From NCBI RefSeq assembly GCF_000022265.1, contig NC_011979.1, forward strand, positions 840,001 through 872,000: DNA of 32,000 nucleotides, given 5' to 3'. Under the pieces are notes generated by a model, which saw only the letters and a program-made list of their open reading frames with translations, searched no databases and was not told the DNA's origin. Numbering within the stretch: position 1 is the stretch's first letter; each line of letters begins with the position of its first letter. The position numbers and the translations under genes are program-made. This document shows positions 10,422-32,000 of this stretch, piece after piece. The stretch comes from Geotalea daltonii FRC-32 (GTDB lineage: Bacteria; Desulfobacterota; Desulfuromonadia; Geobacterales; Geobacteraceae).

Positions 10422-11329
10422 CAGTGGATACGCTTGCACGTCTCTGTACCGCCGTACGGGGCAAGGTGCTGGTGAATGAGCCCCTGGCGGGGCACACCTC
10501 ATTGAAGGTGGGGGGGCCGGCCGACTACTTTGCCATTCCGGCCGATCTGGCCGATCTGGAAGAACTTATCAAGGTTGTGCGGAGCTTGTCTCTGCCATAT
10601 TTCATCATCGGCGGTGGTTTCAACGTGCTGGTCGGTGACGGGGGCTTCAGGGGGGTCGCTATATCCCTCAAGGAACTGAACGGCATGGAGAGTCCCTCCC
10701 GTGGCCGGATCCGTGCAGAGGCAGGGGCTACCAATCAGCAGCTGGTGAATTACGCCACGGGCAAGGAGCTTACCGGCTTGGAATTTCTCAGCTGCATTCC
10801 GGGAACCATAGGCGGTGCGCTCAGCGTAAATGCCGGAGCCCACGGCCAGTCGACGATGGAGCAGGTTGAGACCCTGATAACTATGAGGGATGGCCGGATC
10901 TTTGAAAATGAAGGCAGGAAAAGGAACTTCGGCTACAGGTACCTTGAGCTGGAGCCGGGAGAGATTGTTGTGGCAGCTGTTTTCAGCCTGAGCGAAGGGA
11001 AGGCGGAGGCTATTGGGGAAAAGCTGGAAAGCTATCGCCGCCATCGCCTGGAAAGTCAGAAGATAGGTTATCCCAATGCCGGTTCATTTTTCAAAAACCC
11101 GGAAGGCCAACAGGCATGGCGTTTGATAGACGAGGCAGGTTTCAGAGGCTTCCAGGTGGGAGGAGCCCAGGTTTCCGAGATCCACACCAACTTTCTCGTC
11201 AACAGGGGTGGGGCGAGTGCTGCAGATTTCATCACCCTGGCTGGAATGATCAAACAAAAGGTCCTTGAACGGAGCGGGATTTTGCTCCAGGAGGAAGTGC
11301 GCATCCTGGATGAATATGAGCAGAAATAA
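10418..11329 (+). CDS. murB: UDP-N-acetylenolpyruvoylglucosamine reductase (MurB)
   Basis: 303 aa. FAD-binding PCMH-type N-terminus ([13 protein letters not shown]) and the catalytic-region block [12 protein letters not shown] start overlaps the murC stop (TTGA). GTG at 10424 is an alternative start. Confidence 0.92.
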
Positions 11330-11342
11330 GTCGTGAGGATAG

Positions 11343-12275
11343 GTGGCCATGACCAGTTCAGATAACAAAAAAATCGGCGTATTGATGGGAGGATTTTCGG
11401 CAGAGCGCGAGGTTTCCCTGAAGAGCGGCGCAGCCGTGTTGAAAGCGCTTGTCGGGCTCGGCTACAATGCAGTAGGCATTGACGTTGACCGCAACGTGGC
11501 AACTAAGATCGTAGCGGAAGGCATTAATGCCGCCTTTATCGCGCTCCATGGCCGATATGGTGAAGATGGCGCTATACAGGGCCTGCTGGAATTGATGGCC
11601 ATCCCCTATACCGGCTCCGGTGTTTTGGCCAGTGCTCTGGCCATGAACAAGATATTTGCCAAACAGGCCTTCCAGGCAGCAGGGCTGACCGTTGCCCCTT
11701 ACCGGGTGGTTTGCCGGGGCGAAGTATTCGATGCCAAAACCTTTACCTTCCCGTTCCCGGTGGTGGTAAAGCCATCCCAGGAGGGTTCTTCGGTCGGCGT
11801 CAGCATTGTCAGGCAGGAATCGGAACTTGAGGCTGCAATGCAGGATGCCTTCAAATACGACCGGGAAATACTCATCGAGCAGTTCATCAAGGGAGCCGAA
11901 GTCCAGGTGGGAATATTGGAAGACAAGGCCCTGGGTGCCATTGAGATTGTGCCGAAAAAGGAATTTTACGACTTTGAAGCAAAATACTCACCGGGTATGG
12001 CCGAGCATATCCTGCCGGCAAGACTTCCTGCCGATTTATATGAAAAGGTACTGCGCGCGGGGGAAGAAGGTCACCGTGCCCTGGGCTGCAGCGGATACAG
12101 CAGGGTGGACTTCCTGGTAACAACCGAGGGGCTTTGTTACATCCTTGAGGTCAACACATTGCCCGGCATGACCGACCTCAGCCTGCTGCCGGAGATAGCC
12201 CGCGGTTCGGGAATAGAGTTCGGGGAGCTGGTGGAGAGGCTGATTTCTGCCGCCACATTAAAAATAGCACAATAA
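11343..12275 (+). CDS. ddl: D-alanine--D-alanine ligase (Ddl)
   Basis: 310-aa ATP-grasp enzyme with blocks [33 protein letters not shown] and EVNTLPGMT. The start is GTG 11343 or ATG 11349. Confidence 0.94.
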
Positions 12276-15891: not shown

Positions 15892-17559
15892 ATGTCCTGG
15901 AAGATCATCGAGAAACACCGTAAAATCCTTGCCTGCGAGGATGGGATACCAATAAAGAAGTCGGTGGCCGGCCTCAGGTTCTGCCTGGTTTATCCCAACC
16001 GCTACCATGCCGCCATGAGCAATCTGGGCTTTCAGGCGGTCCATTCCATTCTCAATGGTTACCCTGATGTCCTCTGCGAACGGGCCTTTCTTCCGGACCG
16101 GGAGGATCTGGACGAGTATGCGAAATCGGGTACCCGCCTCCTTTCCCTGGAATCCCAGCGGCCGGTAGCCGAGTTCGATATCATTGCATTCTCTGTCTCC
16201 TTCGAAAGCGATTACCTGAACCTGCCCGTCATTTTCAAGCTTGCAGGCCTGCCTTCCTGTGCCGCGGAGCGTGATTCCTCCATGCCTCTAGTCATGGCCG
16301 GCGGTGCGGCTCTTTTTCTCAATCCTGAGCCAGTTGCGGATTTTATGGATTTCATTTGCGTCGGTGAGGCTGAAACCCTTCTGCCTGCCCTGCTACGGGT
16401 CCTGACCGTGGACGAGCAGATCGTCCGACGGGAACTTTTGGCGCGTTGTGCCGTGGTGCCGGGAGTCTATGTCCCCTCCTTTTACCAGATCACCTATGCC
16501 GGTGCAGGCATCGCTTCGCGCATTAATCTTGATCCCGCCCCGCCGGCGGTCCAACGGCTTTGGGACGGGGACCGTAATGGGGCACCTACTGTCTCGACTA
16601 TCCTCACCGAAAATACGGAATTTTCCGATATGTACCTGGTTGAGGTCGCCCGCGGCTGCCCGCGTGGCTGCCGGTTCTGCGCCGCCGGCTTCATCTATCT
16701 TCCCTATCGCCAGAGGAACATGGAATCGGTTATGGAAGAGGTGAGGAAAGGGCTGCAGAAAAAGAAAAAAATAGGGCTGGTGGGCGCGGCCGTTTCCGAC
16801 TTCAAGGGGGTCGGCGAGCTGTCACGATTCATCGTCCAACAGGGCGGGAAAGTATCTGTTGCTTCCCTGCGTATCGACTGTCTTGACGAACAGCTGGTGG
16901 ATTCCCTAAAGGAGAGCGGCCACAAGACGGTGGCGCTGGCCCCGGAAGGGGGATCACAGCGCCTGCGGGACCTGATCAAAAAGAATATCGACGAAGAGCA
17001 GATATTGACTGCCTGCGACCTGCTCATCGGCAAGGACCTGCTCAACCTGAAACTGTACTTCATCATCGGCCTTCCCACGGAAACCATGGTCGATCTGGAT
17101 GAGATGATCGCCCTTGTGACCAAGGTGCGTGACAGGGTCATTGACGCGGCACGTAAAAACAAAAGGCTGGGTGAGGTGCTGCTTTCGGTTAATCCATTCA
17201 TCCCGAAACCCTTTACCCCCTTCCAGTGGTGCGGCATGGAAGACCTGAAGAGCCTTGAGAAAAAGGCCAGATACCTGCAAAAGGGCCTCTCTGGTCTGTC
17301 AAACGTGAGGATGCAGATGGAGGGATTGAAGGATGCCTATCTGCAGGCACTGCTGTCCCGGGGAGACCGCCGTCTGGCGCCACTCATCCTGCTGGCCGGC
17401 GAAAAAGGCTGGAAAAAGGCCGCCCGTGAATTGAATGTTGACACCGATTCCTGGGTCAGGCGAGACATTTCCCTCGACGAGGTCTTACCCTGGGATTTCA
17501 TTGACAGTGGCGACAGGGAAAAGTTGGTGAGTGAATACCGGAAGGCGTTTTCTGCTTGA
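15892..17559 (+). CDS. Radical SAM protein with N-terminal B12-binding-like domain (TIGR03960-like uncharacterised family)
   Basis: 555 aa with the CxxxCxxC cluster motif in EVARGCPRGCRFCAAGFIYLPYRQR. The N-terminal block RFCLVYPNRYHAAMSNLGFQAV resembles that family. An in-frame TAA sits 4 codons upstream, so ATG 15892 is the first possible start. No obvious SD. Confidence 0.8.
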   Translation: MSWKIIEKHRKILACEDGIPIKKSVAGLRFCLVYPNRYHAAMSNLGFQAVHSILNGYPDVLCERAFLPDREDLDEYAKSGTRLLSLESQRPVAEFDIIAFSVSFESDYLNLPVIFKLAGLPSCAAERDSSMPLVMAGGAALFLNPEPVADFMDFICVGEAETLLPALLRVLTVDEQIVRRELLARCAVVPGVYVPSFYQITYAGAGIASRINLDPAPPAVQRLWDGDRNGAPTVSTILTENTEFSDMYLVEVARGCPRGCRFCAAGFIYLPYRQRNMESVMEEVRKGLQKKKKIGLVGAAVSDFKGVGELSRFIVQQGGKVSVASLRIDCLDEQLVDSLKESGHKTVALAPEGGSQRLRDLIKKNIDEEQILTACDLLIGKDLLNLKLYFIIGLPTETMVDLDEMIALVTKVRDRVIDAARKNKRLGEVLLSVNPFIPKPFTPFQWCGMEDLKSLEKKARYLQKGLSGLSNVRMQMEGLKDAYLQALLSRGDRRLAPLILLAGEKGWKKAARELNVDTDSWVRRDISLDEVLPWDFIDSGDREKLVSEYRKAFSA

Positions 17560-19101: not shown

Positions 19102-21702
19102 TCATGGCTCTCGCTTCTTGATTACCAGACTGTCCCCGTCCATGGCCACATCGACGACGACGGTGTCGCCTTCCTGGAATTTGCCCTGTAACAGCATGAG
19201 CGCCAACGGGTCCTGCACCTTTTTCTGCAGGGTTCGTTTCAGCGGTCGTGCGCCATATGCAGGATCGTAACCTTCCTTGGCAAGGTACTCGCTTGCCCTG
19301 CCCGTTATTTCCAGTCCCAGATTGCGCTCGGCCAGGCGCTTTTGCAGCCCCTTGATCTGGAGAGACACGATGTGTTTGATCTGCTCCAGCGGCAGGGAGT
19401 GGTAAATGATTATCTCGTCGATGCGGTTTAGAAACTCCGGTTTGAAGTTTTCCCGCAGGGTTCCCATGACCATTGTGCGCATTTTTGCGTAGTCGCCGCT
19501 GGCGTACTGCTGTATGAACTGGGAACCCAGGTTGCTGGTCATGATGATTACCGTATTGCGGAAATCGACGGTGCGACCCTGGCCGTCGGTGAGACGGCCG
19601 TCATCCAGCACCTGCAGCAGGATATTGAACACATCCGAGTGGGCCTTCTCGATCTCGTCGAACAGGACAATGCTGTAAGGACGGCGGCGGATGGCCTCGG
19701 TCAGCTGTCCCCCCTCTTCATAGCCCACATAACCGGGAGGTGCACCGATAAGTCTAGCTACCGTATGCCTTTCCTGATACTCACTCATGTCGATGCGAAC
19801 GATGGCCTGGTCATCGTCAAAGAGAAATTCTGCCAATGCCCGGGCGGTTTCGGTTTTGCCGACGCCAGTGGGTCCAAGGAAGATAAAGGAGCCTATGGGC
19901 CGGTTCGGGTCGGAAAGTCCGGACCTGGAACGCCGCACCGCATTGGCCACCAGTTCCAGGGCTTCATCCTGGCCAACGACCCTCCCTTTGAGGCGCTCTT
20001 CCATTCTGACCAGTTTTTCCGATTCGGTCTCCAGCATGCGGTTCACCGGGATGCCGGTCCACTTGGCGACAATCTCCGCCACCATGTCCCCGTCCACCTC
20101 TTCGGGAAGCATCTTCCCTTCTTTCTGTTTCTGCAGCAGTTCATTGCTCTTATCGGCAATATCCTTCTCGATGGCCGGTATCTCCCCATAGCGGAGCTTG
20201 GCGGTTAATGCCAGATCCCCTTCACGCTCACTCTTCTTCGCCTGTTCCTTTTTCTCTTCCAACTGCTTTTTCAGATCGCTGATGCTTGTCAGCAGGGATT
20301 TTTCCTGCTGCCATTGGCTCTTCAGCGTAGCCGAACTGCTGCGCAGTTCTTCAAGTTCGTCCGATATTTTCCTCAGTCGCTCTTTAGCATGGGGGTCCTG
20401 TTCTCGGAGCAGAGCCTGTTTTTCGATCTCCAGCTGGATGACCTTACGTTCCACCTCGTCGATTTCGGTGGGCATGGAGTCGATCTCGATGCGCAGGCGC
20501 GAGGCCGCCTCATCGATGAGGTCGATGGCCTTGTCCGGCAGAAAACGGTCGGTGATATATCTGTCGGAGAGGGTGGCCGCGGCGATGATGGCGCTGTCCT
20601 TGATGCGGACGCTGTGATAGTTCTCGTATCGCTCCTTGAGGCCGCGCAGAATGGCAATGGTGTCTTCGACACTGGGCTCTCCTGCGTAGACCTGCTGAAA
20701 CCGGCGTTCCAACGCCGCATCCTTTTCAATGTGCTTCCGGTATTCATTGAGGGTTGTGGCGCCGATGCAGTGCAGCTCGCCGCGGGCCAAGGCCGGCTTG
20801 AGCATGTTTGAGGCATCCATGGCCCCTTCGGCTGCCCCTGCCCCCACCAGGGTATGCAACTCGTCGATGAAGAGGATGATCTTGCCTTCGGCTTTCTCCA
20901 CTTCCTTGATCACTGCCTTGAGCCGGTCTTCAAATTCCCCACGGTACTTGGCACCGGCAATCAGCGCTCCCATGTCCAATGCCACCAGCTTCTTGTCCCG
21001 CAGGGTTTCCGGCACATCGCCGGAGATGATGCGCTGGGCCAGCCCTTCGACGATGGCGGTTTTTCCCACCCCGGGCTCGCCAATCAGGACCGGGTTATTC
21101 TTGGTTCGCCGCGACAGGACCTGGATAACCCTGCGTATCTCGTCGTCTCTGCCGATTACCGGGTCAAGTTTGCCTCGCCGAGCCAGATCGGTAAGGTCTC
21201 TGGCATATTTGGTCAGTGCCTGATACTTGTCTTCGGCGGCTTGATCGGTAATCTTTTCATCGCCCCTGATATCCTTCAAAGCGGCGAGAATTCCCTCGCG
21301 GGTAACACCGCTTTCTCTGAGAATCCCGGCAATAATACTTCCCTTTTCTCCTACCAGTGCCAAGAGCAAGTGCTCGGTGGAGACAAAGGCATCCTTCATG
21401 GTATCGGCTTCCTTCTGGGCTGCATCCAACACATGATTCAGTGTCGGGGAGAGGAATACCTGCATGGTGGCCCCGCTCGCCCGGGGCAGTTTGCGCAGGG
21501 CCTCGGCCAGCCGTTCGTTAACCAAGTTAGGGGTGACCCCCATCTTTTGCAGGATCGAGCCCGTCAGCCCCCCTTCCTGCCCCAGCATGGCCGAAAGCAG
21601 GTGCTCCGGCTCTATTGCGCTGTTGCCGCGTTGTGCTGCTGCTTCCTGGGCCTGAGACAAGGCTTCCTGGGTCTTTATCGTCATTTTTTCCGGCCTGATC
21701 AT
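19102..21702 (-). CDS. clpB: ATP-dependent chaperone/disaggregase ClpB
   Basis: 866 aa with N-terminal Clp_N repeats, two AAA+ modules (Walker A GEPGVGKT and GPTGVGKT) and a long coiled-coil middle domain between them. GAAGGAG SD. Confidence 0.97.
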
Positions 21703-24002: not shown

Positions 24003-24854
24003 ATGAACTATTCAATGCCTGTCGTAGTCGATAATCTGAGTCTCTACCTTGCTGAAATCAAGCGTTTTCCGGTCCTTTCTCCTGAGGAGGAGCATGAATG
24101 CGCAGTCAGGTTCTATGAAAAGAAGGACCTGGAAGCGGCGCACAAACTGATCACCTCAAATCTCCGCTTTGTGGTGAAGATTGCCGGCGAATATCGCGCC
24201 TACGGCATGAAGATGCTGGACCTGATCCAGGAAGGCAATGTGGGGCTGATGATGGCTGTGCGCAAGTTCAATCCGCACAAGGGCTTTCGACTCATTTCCT
24301 ACGCCGTCTGGTGGATCCGCGCTTATATCCAGAATCACATCATCTCTGCCTGGAGCCTTTTGAAGATCGGCACCACCCAAGCGCAAAGGAAGCTGTTTTT
24401 TAAGCTGAACCAGGCTAAAAGTGCCATCAGGAATATGACTGGTGGCGGCGAAGATTTTCAGGCGACAGCCGAAGCCCTCGATGTGAAGGAAACGGAAGTG
24501 GCGGAAATGGACCAGCGGATGCGGGGAGATTTTTTTCTCGACGCCCAGGTGATTACCGGAGAAGGGTTGACCATGCTGGAGAGCCTCCCCGACGAGCGGC
24601 GCAATCAGGAGGAGCTTCTGGCTGAAGCACAGGAGAGCGCTCTCCTGGAGAAGCAGGTCGCCTCAGCCTTGACCTGCCTCAATGAGAAGGAGCGCTATGT
24701 CATCGAACAGAGGGTTTCTGCCGAGAGTCCCCTGACGCTCCAGGAGATTGCCGATCATTTTTCCATCTCCCGGGAAAGGGTAAGGCAGATCGAGGAAGGA
24801 GCCCTGAAAAAAATGAAGCAGGCACTGCTGCCCTTGGTAACGCAGACGGTTTAG
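24003..24854 (+). CDS. rpoH: RNA polymerase heat-shock sigma factor RpoH (sigma-32)
   Basis: 283-aa sigma70-family protein with regions 2-4. It carries the RpoH box QRKLFFKL that is diagnostic for sigma-32. AGGAGG SD. Confidence 0.93.
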   Translation: MNYSMPVVVDNLSLYLAEIKRFPVLSPEEEHECAVRFYEKKDLEAAHKLITSNLRFVVKIAGEYRAYGMKMLDLIQEGNVGLMMAVRKFNPHKGFRLISYAVWWIRAYIQNHIISAWSLLKIGTTQAQRKLFFKLNQAKSAIRNMTGGGEDFQATAEALDVKETEVAEMDQRMRGDFFLDAQVITGEGLTMLESLPDERRNQEELLAEAQESALLEKQVASALTCLNEKERYVIEQRVSAESPLTLQEIADHFSISRERVRQIEEGALKKMKQALLPLVTQTV

Positions 24855-24993: not shown

Positions 24994-25022
24994 TTTACAA
25001 TTTAGTTAAAGTACCATAGAGT
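24994..25022 (+). promoter_or_regulatory. Candidate promoter driving the SAM riboswitch/metY operon
   Basis: TTTACA-17 nt-TAGAGT in an AT-rich spacer, ending ~20 nt upstream of the riboswitch P1 strand. Confidence 0.45.
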
Positions 25023-25040
25023 CATATCAAAATTTCAACC

Positions 25041-25209
25041 TTCTTTATCGAGAGTGGTGGAGGGAAAGGCCCTGCGAAACCACAGCAACCTGTGCATTTT
25101 TTATTGCAACGGGTGCTAATTCCTGCCGATAAGTAACCGGCGAAGATGAGGTGGGTGCTTGGCGAAAATCTCGCACGAAGCCCCTGCTAACCCAAAGGGG
25201 CTTTTTTTG
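25041..25209 (+). promoter_or_regulatory. SAM-I (S-box) riboswitch with intrinsic terminator expression platform
   Basis: Aptamer (~25041-25153): cTTTATCGAGAGTGGTGGAGGGAAAGGCCCTGCGAAACCACAGCAACC...GGTGCTAATTCCTGCCG...GAAGATGAGG. It matches the conserved S-box blocks (TTATC.AGAG.GG.GGAGGGA..GGCCC..GAA.CC..GCAACC / GGTGCTAA..CC / AGATGAG). P1 pairs CTTTATC with GATGAGG. Terminator: AGCCCCT (25179-85) / AGGGGCT (25196-202) plus T7, 13 nt before the metY ATG. Confidence 0.9.
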
Positions 25210-25221
25210 TAAGGGGAGAGT

Positions 25222-26475
25222 ATGACAGACAAGGCCAGAACATACGGATTTGAAACATTGCTGATCCATGGAGGTCTGGAGCCGGGACCGGCCGGAGCAA
25301 CCACCGTGCCTATCGTTCAGTCCTCTTCCTTTGCCCATGCCACGGCTGAGGACCTGGAGGATATCTTTCGCGGCCGAAAGATCGGCCAGGTATATACCCG
25401 GGTCGGCAATCCGACGACGGAAAGCCTGGAGAAGCGACTGGCGGTCCTGGAAGGGGGGCAATCGGCAGTCGCCACTGCTTCGGGCATGGCTGCCATTACC
25501 ACAGCGGTCATGGCCATCGTCCGGGCAGGTGATGAAATCCTTTCCTCCTCATCACTCTTTGGCGGCACTTTTTCCCTGTTCCGCGATACCCTGTCTGCCT
25601 ACGGCATCACCACCCGCTTTGTGGATCCCACTGATTTAGAGGCAGTAAAAGCGGGTATAAACGAAAAAACCCGCCTCATTTTTCTGGAAACGATCGGCAA
25701 TCCAAAAATGGATGTGCCAGATATCCCAGCAGTTGCCCAACTTGCCAGGGAAGCAGGTATCCCGCTCATGGTGGATGCAACGGTGACTACTCCCTATCTG
25801 GCCACGGGAAAGGATCTGGGAGCGGATATCGTTGTTCATTCGACGAGCAAGTTCATCAACGGCACCGGCAGTGCCATCGGTGGCGCCATTATCGATGTCG
25901 GCCGGTTCAACTGGCAGAGCGCTAAATTTCCACACTTTGAGCTGTTCTTCAAAAAATATCGCGGCTTTGCCTTTACCGCCAGGGTAAGAAAGTTGATCCA
26001 TAAGGATTTTGGCGCCTGTGCTGCTCCCATGAACTCATTCCTCTTGTCGGAAGGAATCGAGACCCTGGCCTTGCGCATGGAGCGTCACTGCAGCAACGCC
26101 CTGAAGCTGGCCCAATTCCTCCAGTTACAGCCAAAGGTTGCCTGGGTGAATTATCCGGGCCTTGCCGACAACCCTTACCACCAAGCGGCGAAAAAGTTAT
26201 ATGGGGACAGATTCGGTGGAGTTCTGACCTTCGGTCTGGCCGACAAGGTGGCTGCTTTCAGTTTTATCAACGGGGTAAGGCTGGCGCGGAATCTGGCCAA
26301 TATAGGCGACGCAAAGACACTGGTCATCCATCCCGCGAGCACCATCTGTGCCGACTTCGGCCCGGAGGAAAAGGGGCTGATGGGGGTGGGTGAAGAGATG
26401 GTGCGGGTGTCGACGGGCATTGAAAACATAAATGACATTATCGAGGATTTTCGGTTATCCTTGGACCAATTGTAA
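25222..26475 (+). CDS. metY: O-acetylhomoserine sulfhydrylase (PLP-dependent Cys/Met metabolism family)
   Basis: 417 aa. N-terminal FETLLIHGG, the PLP-lysine block HSTSKFINGTGSAIGG, and typical OAH sulfhydrylase length and blocks. AAGGGGAG SD. Confidence 0.9.
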   Translation: MTDKARTYGFETLLIHGGLEPGPAGATTVPIVQSSSFAHATAEDLEDIFRGRKIGQVYTRVGNPTTESLEKRLAVLEGGQSAVATASGMAAITTAVMAIVRAGDEILSSSSLFGGTFSLFRDTLSAYGITTRFVDPTDLEAVKAGINEKTRLIFLETIGNPKMDVPDIPAVAQLAREAGIPLMVDATVTTPYLATGKDLGADIVVHSTSKFINGTGSAIGGAIIDVGRFNWQSAKFPHFELFFKKYRGFAFTARVRKLIHKDFGACAAPMNSFLLSEGIETLALRMERHCSNALKLAQFLQLQPKVAWVNYPGLADNPYHQAAKKLYGDRFGGVLTFGLADKVAAFSFINGVRLARNLANIGDAKTLVIHPASTICADFGPEEKGLMGVGEEMVRVSTGIENINDIIEDFRLSLDQL

Positions 26476-26490
26476 AGAAGGAGATGAGAG

Positions 26491-26706
26491 ATGAATCTGA
26501 CGGTAAACGGCAAAGCGGCAACAATAGCGGGCAAGGATAATCTGGACGTCAATGCTCTGTTGGTGGAACTGAAGGTGGAGCAGCCCGACTACGTGACGGT
26601 GGAGCTGAATGGCGACATCCTGGAGCGTGACAATTTCGGCCAGACCATGGTCAAGGACGGCGACACGGTGGAATTCCTCTATTTCATGGGTGGAGGGAAC
26701 CTCTAA
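26491..26706 (+). CDS. ThiS/MoaD-family sulfur-carrier protein (HcyS/CysO-like) with C-terminal extension ...MGGGNL
   Basis: 71 aa, beta-grasp-like in size and pattern (MNLTVNGK...VELNGDIL...DGDTVEFLYFMGGGNL). The Gly-Gly is not terminal. Strong SD (AAGGAGA). Its stop overlaps the start of the E1 gene (TAATG). Confidence 0.8.
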   Translation: MNLTVNGKAATIAGKDNLDVNALLVELKVEQPDYVTVELNGDILERDNFGQTMVKDGDTVEFLYFMGGGNL

Positions 26707-27515
26707 TGCTGACAGAAGACCAGATAGCCCGCTATTCCCGCCACATCATCCTCAAGGAAGTTGGCGGCAAGGGGCAGAAAAAATTGTTTGACGGCAAGGT
26801 GATGATCATCGGCGCCGGTGGCCTAGGCTCCCCCATTGCCCTCTATCTGGCGGCGGCCGGGGTCGGCACCATCGGCATTGCCGATGCCGATGTGGTCGAT
26901 CTTTCCAACCTGCAGCGCCAGGTGATACACCAGACCAAGGATGTGGGGATCGCCAAGGTGCTATCCGCCAAGGAAAAGATGCAGGCCATCAATCCCGAAC
27001 TCACGGTCAACACTTACGAGGAATGGATCAGCGCCGCCAATATCACCGACATCATCAAGGACTATGATTTCGTCATCGACGGCACCGACAACTTCGCTGC
27101 CAAGTTTCTTATCAATGATGCCTGTGTGCTGGCCGGTAAGCCCTATTCCCACGGCGGCATTCTCCAGTTCGACGGCCAGACCATCACTATCGAGCCGGGT
27201 AAGTCGGCCTGCTACCGTTGCATCTTTCCTACGCCGCCGCCCAAAGACGCCATTCCCACCTGTTCCACGGCGGGGGTTATCGGGGTGCTGCCGGGGGTGA
27301 TCGGCACCATTCAGGCTACCGAGGCAATTAAGTTCCTGCTGGGCAAGGGAGAGCTTTTGACCGGGCGACTACTTACCTACAGTGCTCTGCGGATGAGATT
27401 CCGCGAGGTGCCCATCAAGAAGAATGGCAAATGTCCCATCTGCGGTGACAACCCCACCATTACCCAGGTGGTGGACGAACTTGACGCACTGAATGTGTGC
27501 GACCTGGAAAAATGA
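26706..27515 (+). CDS. ThiF/MoeB/HesA-family adenylyltransferase (E1-like, HcyF-like), no rhodanese domain
   Basis: 269 aa with RYSRHIILKEVG, the ATP loop GAGGLGSP and two CxxC pairs (CYRC, CPIC) for structural Zn. The protein ends right after the second CxxC, so no C-terminal rhodanese domain is present. Confidence 0.88.
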   Translation: MLTEDQIARYSRHIILKEVGGKGQKKLFDGKVMIIGAGGLGSPIALYLAAAGVGTIGIADADVVDLSNLQRQVIHQTKDVGIAKVLSAKEKMQAINPELTVNTYEEWISAANITDIIKDYDFVIDGTDNFAAKFLINDACVLAGKPYSHGGILQFDGQTITIEPGKSACYRCIFPTPPPKDAIPTCSTAGVIGVLPGVIGTIQATEAIKFLLGKGELLTGRLLTYSALRMRFREVPIKKNGKCPICGDNPTITQVVDELDALNVCDLEK

Positions 27516-27590
27516 GCAGCTTCCGCACCTGCACAATATTGCCGAATTGATATGTGAAATCTGCCGATAATGTTTTTTGAAAGGTCATTC

Positions 27591-27989
27591 ATGCTTAAAA
27601 TCCCCAAAGTAATCCATGACGATATCATCGCCCATGCCAGGGCGGGGTTTCCCCTTGAAGTATGCGGCATCCTCGGTGGCACTGCAGGGACGGTTTCCGT
27701 TATCTACCGGATGACCAACACCGATCAGAGCAATGAACACTTCATGATGAACCCCAAGGAGCAGTTCGCCGTCATCAAGGAGCTGCGCGCCAATGGGTTG
27801 GAGATGCTGGCCATTTACCACTCCCATCCCGAAACGCCCGCTCGCCCGTCGGAGGAAGATATTCGCTTGGCACTGACCCCGAATGTTTCCTATGTCATTG
27901 CCTCATTGGCTGAACAGGAAAAGCCGGCGGTCAATTCCTTCAGTATCAGCGGCGGAACTGTCACGCCAGAACCTATTGAGGTAATCTGA
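27591..27989 (+). CDS. JAMM/MPN+ metalloprotease (Mec+/HcyD-like sulfur-carrier C-terminal hydrolase)
   Basis: Catalytic Glu in FPLEVCGIL and the JAMM motif HSHPETPARPSEED (HxHx7Sx2D). The track ORF starts at 27570. I prefer ATG 27591 (GAAAGG 7 nt upstream; MLKIPKV.., 132 aa). Confidence 0.85.
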   Translation: MLKIPKVIHDDIIAHARAGFPLEVCGILGGTAGTVSVIYRMTNTDQSNEHFMMNPKEQFAVIKELRANGLEMLAIYHSHPETPARPSEEDIRLALTPNVSYVIASLAEQEKPAVNSFSISGGTVTPEPIEVI

Positions 27990-28032
27990 ACTTTCTTTAC
28001 GGTATTGGTGTAGTATCTCCTTATGTTTTTTC

Positions 28033-28062
28033 TTGACTATTTTACTGATAATCTTGTAGGAT
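28033..28062 (+). promoter_or_regulatory. Possible internal promoter ahead of the sulfite reductase gene
   Basis: TTGACT-18 nt-TAGGAT within the 109-nt AT-rich gap between the JAMM and sulfite reductase genes. Hexamer match only. Confidence 0.3.
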
Positions 28063-28098
28063 GCTTTTACCTGAACTTGAGCAATGGAGTGGATAAAT

Positions 28099-29046
28099 AT
28101 GGCAAACGACAGCGGCAAGACCAGCATCGATCTGGGCAACCTCAAGGCAGGGGGCTTTATCAAGGAGAGGGGCAAGGACCTCTTCACCGTCAGGCTGAGG
28201 GTTCCCGGCGGGAGAATGACCGTCCCCCGACTGAAGAAAATAGCCCAAGTGGCCGAAAAATTCGGTGGGGAATTTGTCCATCTTTCCGTGCGGCAATCCA
28301 TCGAACTGATCAATATCAATTTCAAAGATTTTGATGCCGTTGTTGCCGAGCTGGGTGAAGGCGAGCAGAAGGTCGCCTCCTGCGGTGCCCGGGTAAGGGT
28401 GCCTACCGCTTGCGGCGGCTGCGAATACAACCCCAACGGCCTGGTGGACACCCAGCGTTCGGCCCTGGAGGTTGATGAAAAACTTTTCGGTACTCCCACC
28501 GGCCACCACAAATTCAAGGTCGGCTTTGCCGGCTGCCCCTTTGACTGCCCTAAATCGGCAACCAACGATGTGGGCTTCCAGGGTGCTATCTGGCCTGAGC
28601 TGCACGCTGACGAGTGCATCAGCTGCGGCCTCTGCGCCAAGTCCTGCACGGAGGGGGCCATTGCCATGGGAGCGGACGGCAAACCTGAATTCAACGCTGC
28701 TGCCTGCATCTACTGTGGCGATTGCGTCAAGGTCTGTCCAACCGAAGCTTGGAAGGTAGCAAAAAAAGGCTATACGGTGCGGATTGGCGGCAAATGGGGT
28801 CGTCATCCGTTAGTGGGTACACTTTTCGCCACCTTCCTCCCAGAAGACCGGGTGGTGGATTTTATCGGCGAGGTCCTGGCCTGGTACAAGGAGAAGGCCG
28901 ATGGCACCGGCCGCATCAGGATTGGCGACATCATTATCAGGGAAGGGGCTGATTCGCTTTTAACTCGCCTGAGGGCCAGGTTTCCTGACTTTGTTGCCGA
29001 AAAAACCATCGCCCCGCAGGTGATAGAAACTCAGGTGGGGAAATAA
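28099..29046 (+). CDS. Small siroheme-type sulfite/nitrite reductase family protein with inserted 2x[4Fe-4S] ferredoxin domain (AsrC/DsrA-like)
   Basis: N-terminal NIR/SIR ferredoxin-like half domain (FTVRLRVPGGRMTVPRLKKIAQVAEKFGGEFVHLSVRQSIEL). Cys groups CGARVRVPTACGGC and CPFDC are consistent with a siroheme-coupled cluster. Ferredoxin motifs CISCGLCAKSC and CIYCGDCVKVCP are also present. I prefer ATG 28099 (GGAG 8 nt upstream) over track start 28084. Confidence 0.8.
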   Translation: MANDSGKTSIDLGNLKAGGFIKERGKDLFTVRLRVPGGRMTVPRLKKIAQVAEKFGGEFVHLSVRQSIELININFKDFDAVVAELGEGEQKVASCGARVRVPTACGGCEYNPNGLVDTQRSALEVDEKLFGTPTGHHKFKVGFAGCPFDCPKSATNDVGFQGAIWPELHADECISCGLCAKSCTEGAIAMGADGKPEFNAAACIYCGDCVKVCPTEAWKVAKKGYTVRIGGKWGRHPLVGTLFATFLPEDRVVDFIGEVLAWYKEKADGTGRIRIGDIIIREGADSLLTRLRARFPDFVAEKTIAPQVIETQVGK

Positions 29047-29077
29047 TAGTTCGAGGTTCGAAGTAAGGGAGAAATAT

Positions 29078-29302
29078 ATGCAAACAGTTGATTTACGTGG
29101 TGTCTCCTGCCCGACCAATTTTGTCAAGGCCAAGCTGGCGCTGGAAATGCTGGACGAGGGGGAAACGGTGGAGTTCCTTCTGGATGACGGCGAACCGGTC
29201 AAAAATGTCCCCCGCAGCCTGAAGGGGGAAGGGCATAAACTTCTGGGGCTGAAGCAGGTGGAGAGCCATTACGTCCTGACCCTGGAAAAGGTCGGGGAAT
29301 AA
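29078..29302 (+). CDS. TusA/SirA-family sulfur-transfer protein (variant CPTN motif)
   Basis: 74 aa. VDLRGVSCPTNFVKAKLALEML..GETVEFLLDDGEPVKNVPRSL matches the TusA pattern (D.RG..CP.....K.AL..L..GE.L....DD). AAGGGAG SD. Confidence 0.8.
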   Translation: MQTVDLRGVSCPTNFVKAKLALEMLDEGETVEFLLDDGEPVKNVPRSLKGEGHKLLGLKQVESHYVLTLEKVGE

Positions 29303-29343
29303 ACAGGGCTGACAAGGCCCCAGCTTCTGCTTATAGGCTATAA

Positions 29344-30150
29344 ATGACAGTGGACCAGCAAAAACTGCGAGATATGATCAGCCAACCGAAGACCACCTTC
29401 GTGGCTGGGGCGCTGCGACGCGAGGGGAACGTATTCTTCATCGACGGGGAGCTGCCTGCAAAGTCGAGCCTGGAAGCACTTTTCGATAGTCACTGCCAGT
29501 CTCCGGCTGAGCTGTTCTGCATTGCCTTTCGCAACGTGAGTGACTTCCATTGCGGAGAGGATCTGGCCAGACTGGTTAAAAAAAATTTCAGCGCTCACCT
29601 GCTCGGACGATTCCGGTTTCCCCCTTCCTTGCCCCTGATGGAAAGGGCTTATGCCGCAGGTATCGATATCATCGACATACCACTGGGTGTATTTGATCCG
29701 GACATAGCCCGTGAGCGGGCGCTTAATCGTGAGGCGCTCCTGATATCTTTATCAAATGCGCTTACAGTCTTTCCCCGCTGGTCGGTGGTTTCCACACTGG
29801 ATGCCGGTGAAGAGCCGGCATCATCCACCCGGGCAGGCATAGGCCATTTGCTTGCCGCCGATATTTTACCACTGGTGGAGCTGGTGGCGCCGCTTGCAGA
29901 CAGATCTGCCTCAGAGATCGGCAATCTGTTCGAACAACTGGCAGGAAGCTGGCGCAGCCGGAAGGCAACGATCAAGCCCCTCCAGCCATTGATCGATGTT
30001 ACGACTCCTCTTGCTCCGCTCAAATCAAAAGGCGTGCTAAAGGGGCTCTTTGACAAGGTATATGAGCAGAAGTTGCTGGCGGCCTCTGATTTACGCCGTA
30101 GTCTCAGGGTGCGACAGGTTGAACAGTCATTCGAATCGGCGGGGCTGTAA
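29344..30150 (+). CDS. Hypothetical protein, no family recognised (possible degenerate radical-SAM-like/TIM-barrel fold lacking CxxxCxxC)
   Basis: 268-aa ORF with an in-frame TAA directly upstream and a weak SD. Codon usage resembles its neighbours. Its stop overlaps the DASS permease start (TAATG), which argues that it is expressed as part of the operon. Cys residues occur only in HCQSPAELFCIAFRNVSDFHC. Confidence 0.65.
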   Translation: MTVDQQKLRDMISQPKTTFVAGALRREGNVFFIDGELPAKSSLEALFDSHCQSPAELFCIAFRNVSDFHCGEDLARLVKKNFSAHLLGRFRFPPSLPLMERAYAAGIDIIDIPLGVFDPDIARERALNREALLISLSNALTVFPRWSVVSTLDAGEEPASSTRAGIGHLLAADILPLVELVAPLADRSASEIGNLFEQLAGSWRSRKATIKPLQPLIDVTTPLAPLKSKGVLKGLFDKVYEQKLLAASDLRRSLRVRQVEQSFESAGL

Positions 30151-31592
30151 TGGAGCAGATTGAAAAGCCTCTAAAGATCGACCGCCGCCCCATGTGGCTG
30201 ATTTTGGCCGACCGCACCTTGCACTACCAGGTCTTTGCCGGACTGATCATCCTCTGTACGGTGCTGTTTCAGCTGAAGCCTCCTCAGGGGCTTTCAGTGG
30301 AAGGCTACCACGCCATGATCCTTTTCGGCGCCACCATCTTCCTTTGGGTTTCCAGTTTGCTGCCCCTGGCGGTGACCTCCCTGCTGGCCATGGCCATGAT
30401 ACCGCTGCTCGGCATCATGGAAGCGAAAAAGACCTATGCCTTGTTCGGCAACGAGGCAGTCTTCTTCATTCTGGGAGCCTTCATCATGGCCGCCGCCATG
30501 AGCGGCACAGGTCTTTCGTCCCGCTTGGCACGGGCAATGCTGGCTCGCTTCGGCAGCACCCCAAAAAAGCTGGGCCTGACCGTCTACCTTCTCAGCGCCT
30601 TTCTCTCCTTCTGTATGAGCGAACATGCGGTGGCCGCCATGATGTTCCCCATCGTGGTGGAAATAAGCGGCAGTCTGGGGCTGCAGAGCGAAAAGAACAG
30701 CTACGGCAAATTGCTTTTCATGAGCATCGGCTGGGGCTGTGTCATCGGTGGCATCGCCACCTTTCTCGGCGGAGCCCGTGCGCCGTTGGCGGTAGGAATG
30801 CTTCGGGAGAGTACTGGCCTGGATTTCTCCTTCTTCGAATGGACCATGGCAGCCATCATGATTGTCCTTCCGCTGCTGGTGATCGGCTACCTTCTGCTGC
30901 TCTGGCTATTTCCCCAGGACATTGACAGTGTTGACGAAGGGCTCAGGTTTCTCAACCGTAAGCGATTGGAAGTGGGCCGAATGAGTTATGACGAGATAAT
31001 TGTCGCTGTGGTGACGGTCATCACCATTCTTGCCTGGGTATTTCTCGGTAAACAGCTGGGGCTTGCAAGCATTGCCACCCTGGCGGTGGTCGCTCTTTTT
31101 GCCTGTCGGGTGGTGTCATGGCAGAGCATCGAGGAGTATGTGAACTGGGGCGTGATCCTCATGTACGGCGGGGCCATTGCCATTGCTTCAGCCCTGGAAA
31201 AGACCGGCGCTGCACAATGGCTGGCCGGCCAAGCCCTGGCAGGTCTTAATGACTCTCCCTTTCTGGTCATCACCGTCATGTCGCTGATCTCACTGCTGCT
31301 TACCGAATGTATAAGCAATGCGGCGGTGATCGCCATCCTCCTGCCCATCGGCATCAGCCTGTCCAAATCCATGGGAATGGATCCGCGGGTGATGACCCTG
31401 GCAGTGGCCCTTCCCGCTGGCCTTGCTTATTGTCTGCCCATGGGGACCCCGGCTAACGCCATCGTTTTTTCTTCAGGCTTCCTCAAAAGCAGGGAGATGA
31501 TCCTGCCGGGAATGCTGATCATGGCCATATCGTGGCTGCTGTTTCTCGCTTCGGCCTGGCTGGTCTGGCCGCTGATCGGCTTCAGGATATGA
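30150..31592 (+). CDS. DASS/SLC13-family anion:cation symporter (putative sulfate or other sulfur oxyanion uptake)
   Basis: 480 aa with ~12-14 hydrophobic segments. The two re-entrant hairpin motif positions read FCMSEHAVAAMMFPI (variant of SNT) and TECISNAAVIAILLPIG. Substrate is inferred from context only. Confidence 0.8.
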   Translation: MEQIEKPLKIDRRPMWLILADRTLHYQVFAGLIILCTVLFQLKPPQGLSVEGYHAMILFGATIFLWVSSLLPLAVTSLLAMAMIPLLGIMEAKKTYALFGNEAVFFILGAFIMAAAMSGTGLSSRLARAMLARFGSTPKKLGLTVYLLSAFLSFCMSEHAVAAMMFPIVVEISGSLGLQSEKNSYGKLLFMSIGWGCVIGGIATFLGGARAPLAVGMLRESTGLDFSFFEWTMAAIMIVLPLLVIGYLLLLWLFPQDIDSVDEGLRFLNRKRLEVGRMSYDEIIVAVVTVITILAWVFLGKQLGLASIATLAVVALFACRVVSWQSIEEYVNWGVILMYGGAIAIASALEKTGAAQWLAGQALAGLNDSPFLVITVMSLISLLLTECISNAAVIAILLPIGISLSKSMGMDPRVMTLAVALPAGLAYCLPMGTPANAIVFSSGFLKSREMILPGMLIMAISWLLFLASAWLVWPLIGFRI

Positions 31593-31597
31593 CGATT

Positions 31598-31667
31598 GTA
31601 GGGGCGCTGTTTGCCGCGCCCGGTTTTTCACCAGCAATAATGGGCGCGGCAAGCAGCGCCCTTACGA
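31598..31667. repeat. REP-like nested palindrome (two inverted copies of a GGGCGC-N8-GCGCCC hairpin unit)
   Basis: Arm 1 is GGGCGCTGTTTGCCGCGCCC (31602-31621). Arm 2 is GGGCGCGGCAAGCAGCGCCC (31642-31661). They are reverse complements with one G-U position, separated by 20 nt and flanked by GTAG.../...CTTAC. Each arm is itself a 6-bp hairpin. Confidence 0.6.
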
Positions 31668-31676
31668 GGATGCACC

Positions 31677-32000
31677 ATGACACAGATCCCTGTACTATCA
31701 GACGCCACTCCGGAGGAAATACTCAAGGCCGGCTATGGAGCCACCGGAGGCAACATCGCCCTGGCCTGCTCCTTTTCCGTGGAAGATGTGGTCATCATCG
31801 ACATGGCCCAGGCCCTATCCTTGCCCCTGCGCGTGTTCGCCCTGGATACGGGACGTCTCCACGAGGAGACCTACGAGGTTGCCGATGCCCTCACTGAGCG
31901 CTACCGGATCAAGATCGACTGGTATTATCCCCGCCATGAAGCGGTTGAGCAGCTTTTGCGGGAAAAAGGTACCTTCTCCTTCCGCGAATCCCTTGAGAAC
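31677..32000 (+). CDS. cysH: Phosphoadenylyl-sulfate/adenylyl-sulfate reductase (thioredoxin-dependent CysH family), 3'-truncated by the window edge
   Basis: Hand translation gives MTQIPVLSDATPEEILKAGYGATGGNIALACSFSVEDVVIIDMAQALSLPLRVFALDTGRLHEETYEV...EKGTFSFRESLEN. The SFS.EDVV.IDM and LDTGRLH.ETY blocks are CysH hallmarks. GAGGA SD 6 nt upstream. It is absent from the track because no stop lies within the window. Confidence 0.85.
   Translation, partial: MTQIPVLSDATPEEILKAGYGATGGNIALACSFSVEDVVIIDMAQALSLPLRVFALDTGRLHEETYEVADALTERYRIKIDWYYPRHEAVEQLLREKGTFSFRESLEN

Follow-up and report, generated by a model that had tools for sequence, protein, structure and literature searches.

A probable sulfur-assimilation operon of Geotalea daltonii in which a radical-SAM-fold protein is paired with a DASS-family permease

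The window analysed here, a 32,000-nt stretch of the Geotalea daltonii FRC-32 genome (contig NC_011979.1, positions 840,001 to 872,000, forward strand), ends in a gene set that probably makes up the first three-quarters, counted from the 5′ end, of an operon for sulfur assimilation in a Geotalea-like Geobacteraceae member, using the known protein-thiocarboxylate route to homocysteine. This kind of operon has already been described, and the claim of an earlier note that several of its components lie outside the described systems is mostly wrong. One part is apparently undescribed: a 268-aa protein, encoded directly upstream of the permease gene, whose family is strictly paired with, and occasionally fused to, DASS permeases.

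Gene content, control and synteny

The features of the locus are as follows.

24994..25022, + strand: TTTACA-17-TAGAGT, a promoter-like site ahead of the riboswitch, from a consensus scan only and not evidence of function
25042..25152, + strand: SAM-I (S-box) riboswitch aptamer (Rfam RF00162)
25177..25208, + strand: intrinsic terminator of the riboswitch (expression platform), from sequence and RNA fold
25222..26475, + strand: metY, O-acetylhomoserine sulfhydrylase (PLP enzyme), 417 aa (PF01053, E = 7e-119)
26491..26706, + strand: ThiS-family sulfur carrier (HcyS-like), 71 aa, ending in FMGGGNL (GGG-NL; PF02597)
26706..27515, + strand: ThiF/MoeB-type E1 adenylyltransferase (HcyF-like), 269 aa (PF00899, E = 2e-87)
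27570..27989, + strand: JAMM/MPN+ metalloprotease (HcyD/Mec-like), 139 aa (PF14464, E = 1.5e-28)
28084..29046, + strand: siroheme sulfite reductase of a single subunit, into which a 2x[4Fe-4S] ferredoxin domain is inserted (PF01077, PF03460, Fer4)
29078..29302, + strand: TusA/SirA-family sulfur-relay protein, 74 aa, with its Cys in a GVSCP motif (PF01206, E = 4e-20)
29344..30150, + strand: ORF of the 268-aa protein, a candidate variant radical-SAM family member, N-terminally truncated and without the cysteine motif
30150..31592, + strand: DASS-family anion symporter, 480 aa, putative sulfate permease (TIGR00785, PF00939)
31602..31631, + strand: terminator-like hairpin rich in G+C, with GGTTTTT after it, in the 84-nt DASS/cysH gap, from a pattern scan and the sequence
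31677..32000, + strand: cysH, N-terminal 108 codons, running off the window (PRK02090 and APS_reductase models on the partial protein)

According to the ORF listing, the nine genes from metY through cysH are co-directional on the plus strand, with intergenic gaps of 15, -1, 54, 94, 31, 41, -1 and 84 nt; both 1-nt overlaps, between the carrier and E1 genes and between the 268-aa gene and the DASS gene, read TAATG, the start codon overlapping the preceding stop codon. The overlaps that were first noticed are present, as are the carrier's GGGNL end, the SAM-I riboswitch and the JAMM motif, and every domain assignment proposed at that stage was confirmed by Pfam and NCBIfam models. Because a terminator-like hairpin (31602-31621) lies between the DASS gene and cysH, the nine genes may form two transcription units.

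The complete nine-gene order recurs in seven related genomes or MAGs (L001, L002, L008, L009, L010, L012 and L016) and is partial in three others (L005, L006 and L011), so the arrangement has not arisen by chance, and the synteny in relatives on which the earlier note's reading depends is borne out. The best-matching locus, from Geotalea toluenoxydans, has 89-100% amino acid identity. Downstream of cysH, where sulfate activation genes had been suspected, relatives carry cysD and cysN.

The riboswitch match covers the full model (positions 1-108) with 79.1 bits (gathering score 44.4; E = 3e-17), and its terminator consists of a 9-bp G+C-rich stem and a U-run just ahead of the RBS and the metY start codon (ATG, 25222). 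The riboswitch proposed in the earlier note is therefore real, but it precedes metY in only 3 of the 7 relatives with the full operon (L001, L002 and L009).

A candidate route from sulfate to homocysteine

In the route that we infer for this operon, low SAM would allow the SAM-I riboswitch to permit read-through of the terminator, and sulfate, the presumed DASS substrate, would be imported by a permease made together with its cytoplasmic 268-aa partner through translational coupling. CysDN, encoded just past the window, would form APS, which an APS-reductase-type CysH would convert to sulfite; the stand-alone, Fsr-C-like siroheme sulfite reductase would then bring sulfite to the sulfide level with electrons from a ferredoxin-type donor, none being encoded in the operon. 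In parallel, the JAMM protease would remove the 1-3 residues after the carrier GGG and the rhodanese-less E1 would adenylate the carrier C-terminus. Sulfide, either free or relayed as a TusA persulfide, would turn this adenylate into a thiocarboxylate, which MetY would join to O-acetylhomoserine; the product would undergo an S-to-N acyl shift before homocysteine is freed by the JAMM protease.

The composition and order of the first four genes both match the MetY-HcyS-HcyF-HcyD route, as had been proposed. The carrier scores 62.8 bits against TIGR01683 (NCBIfam cut-off 37.45), and its C-terminus in nine loci comprises an invariant FLYF[MR]GGG followed by a variable tail of 1-3 residues, which implies by analogy with HcyS-Ala that the tail would be trimmed by the JAMM protease. 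The protease carries the motif HSHPETPARPSEED (HxHx7Sx2D), visible in the JAB translation, and scores 88.9 bits against the NCBIfam desampylase model, below its cut-off of 130. The best NCBIfam models for the E1 are MoeB and the SAMP-activating E1, and a rhodanese domain was not found in it with Pfam or NCBIfam. MetY lies slightly below the NCBIfam cut-off of TIGR01326 (479.9 versus 495.1 bits), and its PDB matches are 8sf5 (401 bits), Thermotoga maritima MetY (7kb0, 370 bits) and Wolinella succinogenes MetY (3ri6, 322 bits). Among these, the W. succinogenes enzyme, which uses a thiocarboxylate, is not specifically the nearest, so it is gene context that suggests use of the carrier by the window MetY.

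The sulfite reductase is classified by its sequence as an Fsr-C-like, group III Dsr-LP enzyme. Among PDB structures it matches the C-terminal half of Fsr best (7np8, E = 6.7e-37). In that alignment, R37, R105, K143 and K145 fall opposite the sulfite-binding residues Arg355, Arg423, Lys460 and Lys462, and C110, C151, C155 and all eight ferredoxin cysteines are also aligned; the first siroheme-cluster Cys pair is CX2C in the window enzyme versus CX5C in Fsr. It thus resembles the Fsr C-terminal half and group III Dsr-like proteins (7NP8; PMC10229431, PMC3448663) in its siroheme-[4Fe-4S] core, its inserted two-cluster ferredoxin domain and the retention of all four sulfite-binding Arg/Lys residues, but it is free-standing, without the F420H2-oxidase half or AsrA/AsrB. 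An AsrC equivalog assignment was rejected at 136.8 bits (NCBIfam cut-off 324). In all 10 loci with this type of reductase, tusA follows directly. By its sequence, cysH appears to encode the thioredoxin-dependent APS-reductase type; in L009 the orthologue is complete, shares 87% identity with the part inside the window, passes TIGR02055 (266.6 bits, cut-off 235.3) and carries a CC...CxxC motif.

The four Hcy-type proteins were reportedly reconstituted as the W. succinogenes homocysteine pathway by Krishnamoorthy and Begley (JACS, 2011), and the Begley work on Wolinella is said to have already used Sir and noted sulfate-reduction genes. The Wolinella MetY-HcyS-HcyF-HcyD-Sir cluster (MetY structure 3RI6) reportedly shares with the window a ThiS-fold carrier that requires removal of C-terminal residues, a rhodanese-less E1, a JAMM protease, MetY, the clustering of genes for sulfite reductase and sulfate reduction, and the same predicted chemistry. 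In contrast, the Wolinella HcyS tail is reportedly a single Ala after GGG, compared with 1-3 variable residues in window-type carriers, and the window differs from that cluster in its SAM-I riboswitch and in uptake by DASS with a radical-SAM-derived partner. The existence of the pathway (Krishnamoorthy and Begley 2011) is confirmed in PMC8191291.

Further, in M. tuberculosis CysO-CysM-MoeZ-Mec+ and Streptomyces MetO-MetM, a Ubl carrier, an E1 and a JAMM protease likewise feed a PLP enzyme; in the window, however, the acceptor enzyme would be MetY, with O-acetylhomoserine as its substrate, the E1 lacks rhodanese, and the sulfur would come from the operon-encoded sulfite reductase and TusA. For G. 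metallireducens and W. succinogenes, Iyer, Burroughs and Aravind (2006; PMC1779556, Table 1, row 4e) tabulate neighbourhoods of the type ThiS/MoaD-JAB-E1 that include SirA, O-acetylhomoserine sulfhydrylase, sulfate transporters and the enzymes of sulfate activation and reduction (ATP sulfurylase, APS kinase, PAPS reductase, sulfite reductase). In their account SirA is always part of such neighbourhoods, and the E1 of type 4e is without rhodanese. A G. sulfurreducens counterpart is annotated in PMC3495685. TusA (SirA) and the sulfite reductase, which the earlier note had placed outside described systems, were therefore both catalogued in 2006, and the group III Dsr-LP type of reductase was noted in Geobacter in 2012 (PMC3448663). 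For type 4e, PMC1779556 names ABC sulfate/sulfite transporters, whereas the window uses DASS, and no DASS permease is among the components given there; the term 'radical SAM' is absent from its text.

The 268-aa protein and its permease

The 268-aa protein has no Pfam match and scores 20.1 bits against the variant radical-SAM family NF045502 (NCBIfam cut-off 125). Its AF2 model (pLDDT 85.9) is a (beta/alpha)6 partial TIM barrel like those of the NF045502 family, LipA, BioB and ThiH, and the best Foldseek matches are BioB, PylB, HemN and LipA. Relatives of a long form, about 400 aa in length, have a CX8CX2C motif and are closest in fold to the sulfur-inserting enzymes LipA and BioB, and to ThiH. 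The window protein is without their CX8CX2C and N-terminal domain of about 120 aa, and no Cys is invariant among its 174 homologues; a C-terminal tail, LRRxLRV..SF.S..L, is common to both forms. The window protein thus keeps a predicted radical-SAM fold, whereas both the N-terminal domain and the cysteine motif of its long-form relatives have been lost.

The short form precedes a DASS gene in 43 of 43 Geobacterales loci, with or without thiocarboxylate genes, and family members adjoin DASS in both Binataceae loci; in 6 of 8 further long-form loci, a DASS gene follows whose product is 43-50% identical to that of the window. Overall, four types of operon contain the pair, and in Binatia the long forms are placed between ThiF/JAB/ThiS genes and DASS. 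The earlier note had correctly flagged the coupling of this protein to DASS, but the protein, with its 174 homologues, is not an orphan, and its partner is probably the permease rather than the carrier quartet. Moreover, natural rSAM::DASS fusions exist (P0251 and P0231). For example, P0251 is an uninterrupted ORF, N-terminally rSAM and C-terminally DASS, flanked by a TusA-domain gene and cysD-cysN, and in the fusions the LRRxLRV... tail links the rSAM part to the DASS part. We infer that the 268-aa protein serves the permease as a subunit without catalytic activity, in a structural or regulatory role, and would dock via its conserved basic C-terminal tail.

The permease itself scores 273 bits against TIGR00785 (NCBIfam cut-off 198.6), and DASS neighbours across two phyla include cysH/cysDN or ATP sulfurylase. 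It had been taken as a novelty, but characterised DASS sulfate permeases from Rhodobacter capsulatus and others are reviewed in PMC5840216. The window permease shares their family membership and probably their role in assimilatory sulfate uptake; it differs from them in that its type is always paired, and in some lineages fused, with a radical-SAM-fold protein. An accessory cytoplasmic subunit is not mentioned in the passages of the review that were consulted, and 'radical SAM' does not occur in PMC5840216.

Alternative readings

The adjacency to DASS might instead reflect operon packing, with the 268-aa protein and its long relatives acting primarily with E1, carrier and JAMM, for example in sulfur loading or relay or as an E1 target. 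The long forms always lie beside ThiF, JAB or ThiS genes and two loci have no DASS after the long form, so such a primary tie retains some plausibility. In particular, ThiF, JAB, ThiS or TusA genes are directly upstream in 8 of the 8 further long-form loci, a JAB::rSAM fusion (P0163) adjoins a ThiS gene in L050, PHP or PP-loop protein genes replace DASS downstream in L050 and L053, an E1 gene immediately precedes the short form in L003, L004, L019, L021 and L025, and the closest long-form folds are the sulfur-inserting enzymes and ThiH named above. However, about 20 Geobacterales loci have the 268-aa/DASS pair without a carrier, E1 or JAB gene nearby, in L034, L036 and L039 it belongs to an operon of the Rrf2-cysK-DUF2292-NirA-type-SiR kind with no carrier system, and the fusions to DASS are covalent. 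The short form has neither the family cysteine motif nor an invariant cysteine and so is unlikely to carry out radical chemistry or persulfide relay. This reading as a whole is unlikely.

Slightly less likely still is that DASS imports thiosulfate, sulfite, an organosulfonate or a dicarboxylate, on which the long-form radical-SAM partner acts. The DASS family carries dicarboxylates as well as inorganic anions, the window permease matches a family-level model only, and sulfate uptake by itself would not readily account for a catalytically competent-looking partner in other phyla; but the immediate neighbours in several lineages are sulfate-specific (cysH-cysDN, ATP sulfurylase, APS kinase, and cysD-cysN after the fusion), these operons hold no other sulfate transporter, and the Geobacterales partner is without the family Fe-S cluster motif. 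It is very unlikely that carrier, E1 and JAMM serve thiamin or molybdopterin sulfur transfer, or ubiquitin-like conjugation, while MetY uses free sulfide from the sulfite reductase. In NCBIfam the carrier falls within the thiamin ThiS equivalog, while the E1 clears the cut-off of a MoeB subfamily model (PRK05690), both of which count against the homocysteine-route reading; the desampylase model is the nearest for the JAMM protein, and MetY scores higher with 8sf5 and 7kb0 than with the W. succinogenes enzyme. In contrast, the operon contains no thiG, thiH, thiE, moaE or other acceptor enzyme gene, the metY-carrier-E1-JAB order is kept under the control of a methionine-specific SAM riboswitch, removal of the variable residues after GGG needs a dedicated protease, and the same gene combination is reported as the homocysteine pathway reconstituted from W. 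succinogenes.

Beyond the homocysteine route preferred for the window, the Binatia long-form operons combine ThiF genes and one ThiS gene with two PALP genes, one the size of a threonine synthase gene and the other the size of a cysteine synthase gene; read from size and context only, the two PALP genes would be MetM-like and CysM-like.

Gene order, regulation and relatives of the operon

Nine co-directional genes occupy 25222-32000 on the plus strand. The ORF listing agrees exactly with the earlier note, including its short gaps and two 1-nt overlaps; the distances between successive genes are 15, -1, 54, 94, 31, 41, -1 and 84 nt, with TAATG at both overlaps. HMM searches (Pfam/NCBIfam) confirm each of the domains proposed from the sequence, and the SAM-I riboswitch placed upstream of the genes is real, scoring above the Rfam gathering threshold and followed by an expression platform. 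It is the sole Rfam element found across the whole window.

Features of the operon and its leader, in window coordinates
25042-25152: SAM-I riboswitch (RF00162, 79.1 bits against a gathering threshold of 44.4)
25177-25208: riboswitch terminator, a 9-bp G+C stem and U-run directly before the RBS and ATG of metY
First gene, plus strand: metY, Cys_Met_Meta_PP/OAH sulfhydrylase (PF01053 match)
Second gene, plus strand: HcyS-like carrier of the ThiS family (PF02597 and TIGR01683 matches)
Third gene, plus strand: HcyF-like E1 of the ThiF/MoeB type (PF00899 match), without a rhodanese domain
Fourth gene, plus strand: HcyD-like JAMM protease (Prok-JAB domain)
28084-29046, plus strand: sulfite reductase, NIR_SIR and NIR_SIR_ferr domains with inserted Fer4 motifs
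Sixth gene, plus strand: TusA-like protein (TusA domain)
29344-30150, plus strand: 268-aa protein
30150-31592, plus strand: DASS permease (TC 2.A.47; TIGR00785 273 bits against a cut-off of 198.6, and PF00939)
31602-31631: hairpin rich in G+C (with 6 G-C pairs), then GGTTTTT, in the 84-nt DASS-cysH gap; a hairpin can be read on the minus strand too
From 31677, plus strand: cysH, PAPS_reduct type, with only 108 codons inside the window

The stem and U-run ahead of metY are predicted to be a classical termination-type platform. The Geobacter S-boxes catalogued in 2004 sat upstream of metIC and metX, and the window riboswitch is not among them (PMC545781). In only 3 of the 7 relatives with the full operon was a SAM riboswitch found. 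It does not define the module and is an ordinary regulatory variant. Further downstream, the hairpin between DASS and cysH, placed at 31602-31621 by a pattern scan, may attenuate or end the riboswitch-controlled transcript ahead of the sulfate-reduction genes, whose transcription may thus be partly independent of the riboswitch. The upstream neighbours (a dcw cell-division cluster, ClpB, a class IV aminotransferase and an RpoH-like sigma factor) are unrelated to the operon. The dcw/ftsZ cluster is directly followed by an unrelated radical-SAM protein of 555 aa (15892-17559), which has a Radical_SAM_N2 domain, and ClpB (19102-21702, minus strand) and the RpoH-like sigma factor (24003-24854) stand between it and the operon.

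Relatives were sampled with a profile of the 268-aa protein, taking one genome per species, which gave 45 loci. The best locus is that of Geotalea toluenoxydans, with 96% identity for the 268-aa protein and 89-100% for the other eight. The gene set is syntenic: the order metY, carrier, E1, JAMM protease, sulfite reductase, TusA, 268-aa protein, DASS and cysH is kept in seven genomes or MAGs from several genera, and partially in three more. Inspection of what follows cysH, as the earlier note had advised, finds cysD and then cysN in Geotalea sp. SG265. The full-length CysH of that genome scores 266.6 bits on TIGR02055 (cut-off 235.3) and carries a CC...CxxC cluster motif (ECCH...CAPC); judged on this orthologue, the CysH is predicted to be of the thioredoxin-dependent APS-reductase type. 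APS kinase is absent from the SG265 operon and none is needed, so that, with cysD and cysN following cysH, the complete unit would span sulfate uptake to homocysteine.

The putative thiocarboxylate quartet and the sulfite reductase

The operon encodes a ThiS-fold carrier with a C-terminal Gly-Gly, as in the HcyS/HcyF/HcyD/MetY pathway, together with E1 and MetY in an order kept in 7 loci. The carrier ends in FMGGGNL; across 9 loci, ...FLYF[MR]GGG is invariant near its C-terminus and the residues after it vary (NL, SR, N, ANR, AA or KNR). Such a pattern, a conserved Gly-Gly(-Gly) ahead of residues that are not conserved, would be expected if the neighbouring JAMM protease, which contains HSHPETPARPSEED (HxHx7Sx2D), trims a precursor; at the level of sequence, a likely precursor carrier and a JAMM gene occur together. 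The E1 has a GxGxxG loop and two CxxC pairs. In Wolinella, HcyS-Ala is reportedly likewise a C-terminally trimmed precursor, the reconstitution is said to have used Sir-derived bisulfide as its sulfur source, and the cluster reportedly encodes sulfate-to-sulfide enzymes.

In NCBIfam the carrier falls with thiamin ThiS and the E1 with models of the MoeB type, which counts against a specific assignment, and MetY matches structure 8sf5 (401 bits) and T. maritima MetY 7kb0 (370 bits) ahead of the W. succinogenes enzyme 3ri6 (322 bits, eighth in rank). The assignment to homocysteine synthesis therefore rests on the conserved context, the methionine-specific riboswitch and the operon's lack of any thiamin or molybdopterin acceptor gene.

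Among solved structures, the reductase comes nearest to the C-terminal half of Fsr, the F420-dependent sulfite reductase (7NP8, E 6.7e-37). The sulfite-binding residues of Fsr are Arg355, Arg423, Lys460 and Lys462 (PMC10229431), and window residues R37, R105, K143 and K145 align with them. All eight ferredoxin cysteines also align with Fsr, giving the two ferredoxin-type [4Fe-4S] motifs of group III Dsr-like proteins, as do three of the four siroheme-cluster cysteines (C110, C151 and C155). In Fsr the cluster motif is CX5C...CX3C, whereas the first pair in the window protein is CX2C; N116 stands opposite Cys434 of Fsr, with the cysteine at C113 instead. By these alignments the enzyme is classified as a group III Dsr-like protein (Fsr-C type), a group recorded in Geobacter by Susanti and Mukhopadhyay (PMC3448663). 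AsrC was rejected as its identity, with TIGR02912 at 136.8 bits against a cut-off of 324.1 and no asrA or asrB in the operon. In line with the earlier description of a reductase without an evident electron-donor subunit, neither AsrA/AsrB nor any other donor is encoded nearby.

The module is already described in type. In 2006, Iyer, Burroughs and Aravind defined type 4e neighbourhoods in which the E1 is always without rhodanese and SirA is always present, and predicted the carrier to be an endpoint of assimilated sulfur (PMC1779556). The window operon has the same content: a rhodanese-less E1, SirA/TusA, a sulfite reductase, a PAPS/APS reductase and sulfate activation genes. The TusA-like protein and the sulfite reductase, which had been taken as additions to the described system, are not new to it, since type 4e neighbourhoods contain both (PMC1779556). 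The Wolinella reconstitution is cited in PMC8191291, PMC6225789 and PMC5764234; according to the last of these, neither KEGG nor MetaCyc included the protein-thiocarboxylate route as of 2017. The operon is a riboswitch-controlled Geobacteraceae example of a known, still poorly annotated pathway.

The 268-aa protein paired with the DASS permease

The 268-aa protein had been called an orphan translationally coupled to the permease. The coupling holds (TAATG overlap) and the orphan status does not: Pfam gives no match, and a search returns 174 homologues of about 268 aa, every named source of which is Geobacteraceae. Among 33 sequences of the family, 37 columns are invariant and no cysteine is. 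The number of homologues and the invariant columns also argue against a spurious or decaying gene.

An AlphaFold (AF2) model predicts with confidence (pLDDT 85.9) a partial barrel of the (beta/alpha)6 kind, whose C-terminal helix alone is of low confidence, and its nearest solved folds by Foldseek are the radical-SAM enzymes BioB, PylB, HemN and LipA (E about 1e-4, TM about 0.5). When 1.8 billion representatives were searched with a profile, many longer proteins (360-430 aa) appeared besides the short forms, aligning with the 268-aa protein from roughly residue 40-75 up to residue 268. These long forms score up to 219 bits on the NCBIfam variant radical-SAM model NF045502, and have an additional N-terminal domain and a nearly invariant CX8CX2C; a model of one is closest to LipA, LIAS, ThiH and BioB (E 1e-7 to 1e-6). 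A nearly invariant basic tail, (D)LRRxLRV+xVxxSFxSxxL, is common to short and long forms. The 268-aa protein thus has the radical SAM fold and homology; the segment bearing the [4Fe-4S] cysteine triad is absent, and neither CX3CX2C nor the CX8CX2C of the subfamily is found in it. Its sequence identifies it as a truncated derivative without the triad, and not as a radical-SAM enzyme.

A DASS gene directly follows the short form in 43 of 43 loci, and likewise in both Binataceae loci (2/2). Four operon types are distinguished.

Operon types containing the 268-aa protein and DASS
(a) the nine-gene type of the window
(b) E1, 268-aa protein, DASS, cysH, cysDN
(c) Rrf2, cysK, DUF2292, NirA-type sulfite reductase, 268-aa protein, DASS, cysH, cysDN; no carrier system
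(d) 268-aa protein, DASS and Rrf2 alone, in Geomonas and others (about 20 loci)

Since the protein accompanies DASS in all four, the reading that it is specific to the thiocarboxylate quartet was rejected. A small ORF upstream of E1 in one locus (L004) was considered as a carrier and rejected. Type (c), whose sulfite reductase is of the NirA/CysI kind, is found in Geobacteraceae at L034:6831-9948, and also at L036 and L039. Just upstream, on the opposite strand, are two genes with weak similarity to metY (32-35% identity), which we read as metI/metC-like; L034 also has a SAM-I riboswitch. In Geomonas, a gene for an Rrf2-family regulator follows the stand-alone pair (L015:12314-12775 and L054:10314-10775), which suggests sulfur- or Fe-S-responsive transcription control replacing the riboswitch. 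Rfam searches of 7 loci, five of them with the stand-alone pair, find no riboswitch adjoining it.

In Binatia, operons with the long forms (rSAM) have the order ThiF, PALP (~420 aa), ThiS, PALP (~325 aa), NIL, degenerate ThiF, rSAM, DASS and ATP sulfurylase, and no sulfite or APS reductase is found within them. From size and context, the PALP genes are read as MetM-like and CysM-like, and the whole looks like a combined thiocarboxylate route to homocysteine and cysteine. The individual loci are L046:3662-12421, L047:3782-11918 and L049:3799-10704, with PALP sizes of 417-422 and 313-333 aa and an optional Usp gene after DASS; the L049 operon stops at DASS, with no ATP sulfurylase called. Further metagenomic loci have ThiF-rSAM-DASS or PALP-JAB-ThiF-rSAM-DASS. 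Two loci have a PHP or PP-loop gene instead of DASS after the rSAM gene, with ThiS/ThiF/JAB present; one of these is a JAB::rSAM fusion (P0163, L050:719-2446) that adjoins a ThiS gene. Moreover, two proteins are rSAM::DASS fusions (P0251 and P0231). P0251 (881 aa, L055:498-3143) is an uninterrupted ORF with a TusA-domain gene before it and cysD-cysN after it, and in the fusion the LRRxLR tail serves as the linker that leads into transmembrane region one.

Taken together, the position beside DASS in different phyla, the translational coupling and the fusions favour a physical partnership between the protein and the permease; given the recurrent ThiF, JAB and TusA neighbours, the family may also have a functional link to the carrier system. 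The literature searched (radical SAM with DASS, sulfate transporter or sulfur carrier) contains no description of a pair of DASS and radical-SAM-fold proteins, and no accessory subunit for DASS transporters came up in these sources.

Proposed scheme and accessory observations

The observed gene content, motifs and synteny are most likely read as a four-step scheme. Transcription would be under SAM control, and sulfate would enter through DASS with its 268-aa partner, the substrate of the permease being read from genomic context. CysDN, CysH and the Dsr-like reductase would then take sulfate to the level of sulfide. Finally, the JAMM protease would trim the carrier, E1 would adenylate it and the thiocarboxylate would form, with TusA as a possible persulfide relay, in line with the 2006 prediction; condensation by MetY would follow, and the JAMM protease would then free homocysteine.

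The useful new lead is that putative sulfate permeases of the DASS family are strictly paired, and at times fused, with a radical-SAM-derived protein; this is so in at least two phyla, beside ThiS/E1/JAMM genes. Tentatively, and with a good deal of doubt, the two proteins could be read as an unrecognised two-component, sometimes fused, sulfate-uptake unit, whose cytoplasmic subunit links uptake to the ubiquitin-like sulfur-carrier machinery; the ancestral long form would be an active Fe-S/SAM enzyme or a SAM sensor, and the Geobacterales form without the Fe-S motif would gate or scaffold the permease. If so, a radical-SAM-derived domain would regulate or channel sulfate import. Independently of this reading, the Geobacterales form without the Fe-S motif provides a natural separation-of-function variant. 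The pairing yields a testable hypothesis on the way in which anaerobes may link sulfate import to amino-acid synthesis based on sulfur carriers.

The CysN of these operons is 558 aa long, with about 110 unannotated residues after the CysN core, where CysNC fusions have APS kinase. This extension (L009:15436-15792 in SG265, just past the equivalent of the window end, and L001:15536-15886 in G. toluenoxydans) is conserved at 17 loci, and neither Pfam nor NCBIfam gives a match to it. The C-terminus of most copies reads GG[LI] (GGGL, for instance), which recalls the GGG-xx tail of the window carrier, and the extension could be a second carrier-like domain. In the draft genome of G. toluenoxydans JCM 15764, the genes for E1, the 268-aa protein, DASS and CysN are each broken into several frames (for example 7364-8169, 10001-12243 and 14214-15889 of L001); identity of the split genes to the intact ones in the window is nevertheless 88-99%, and the breaks are likely sequencing frameshifts, not pseudogenes.
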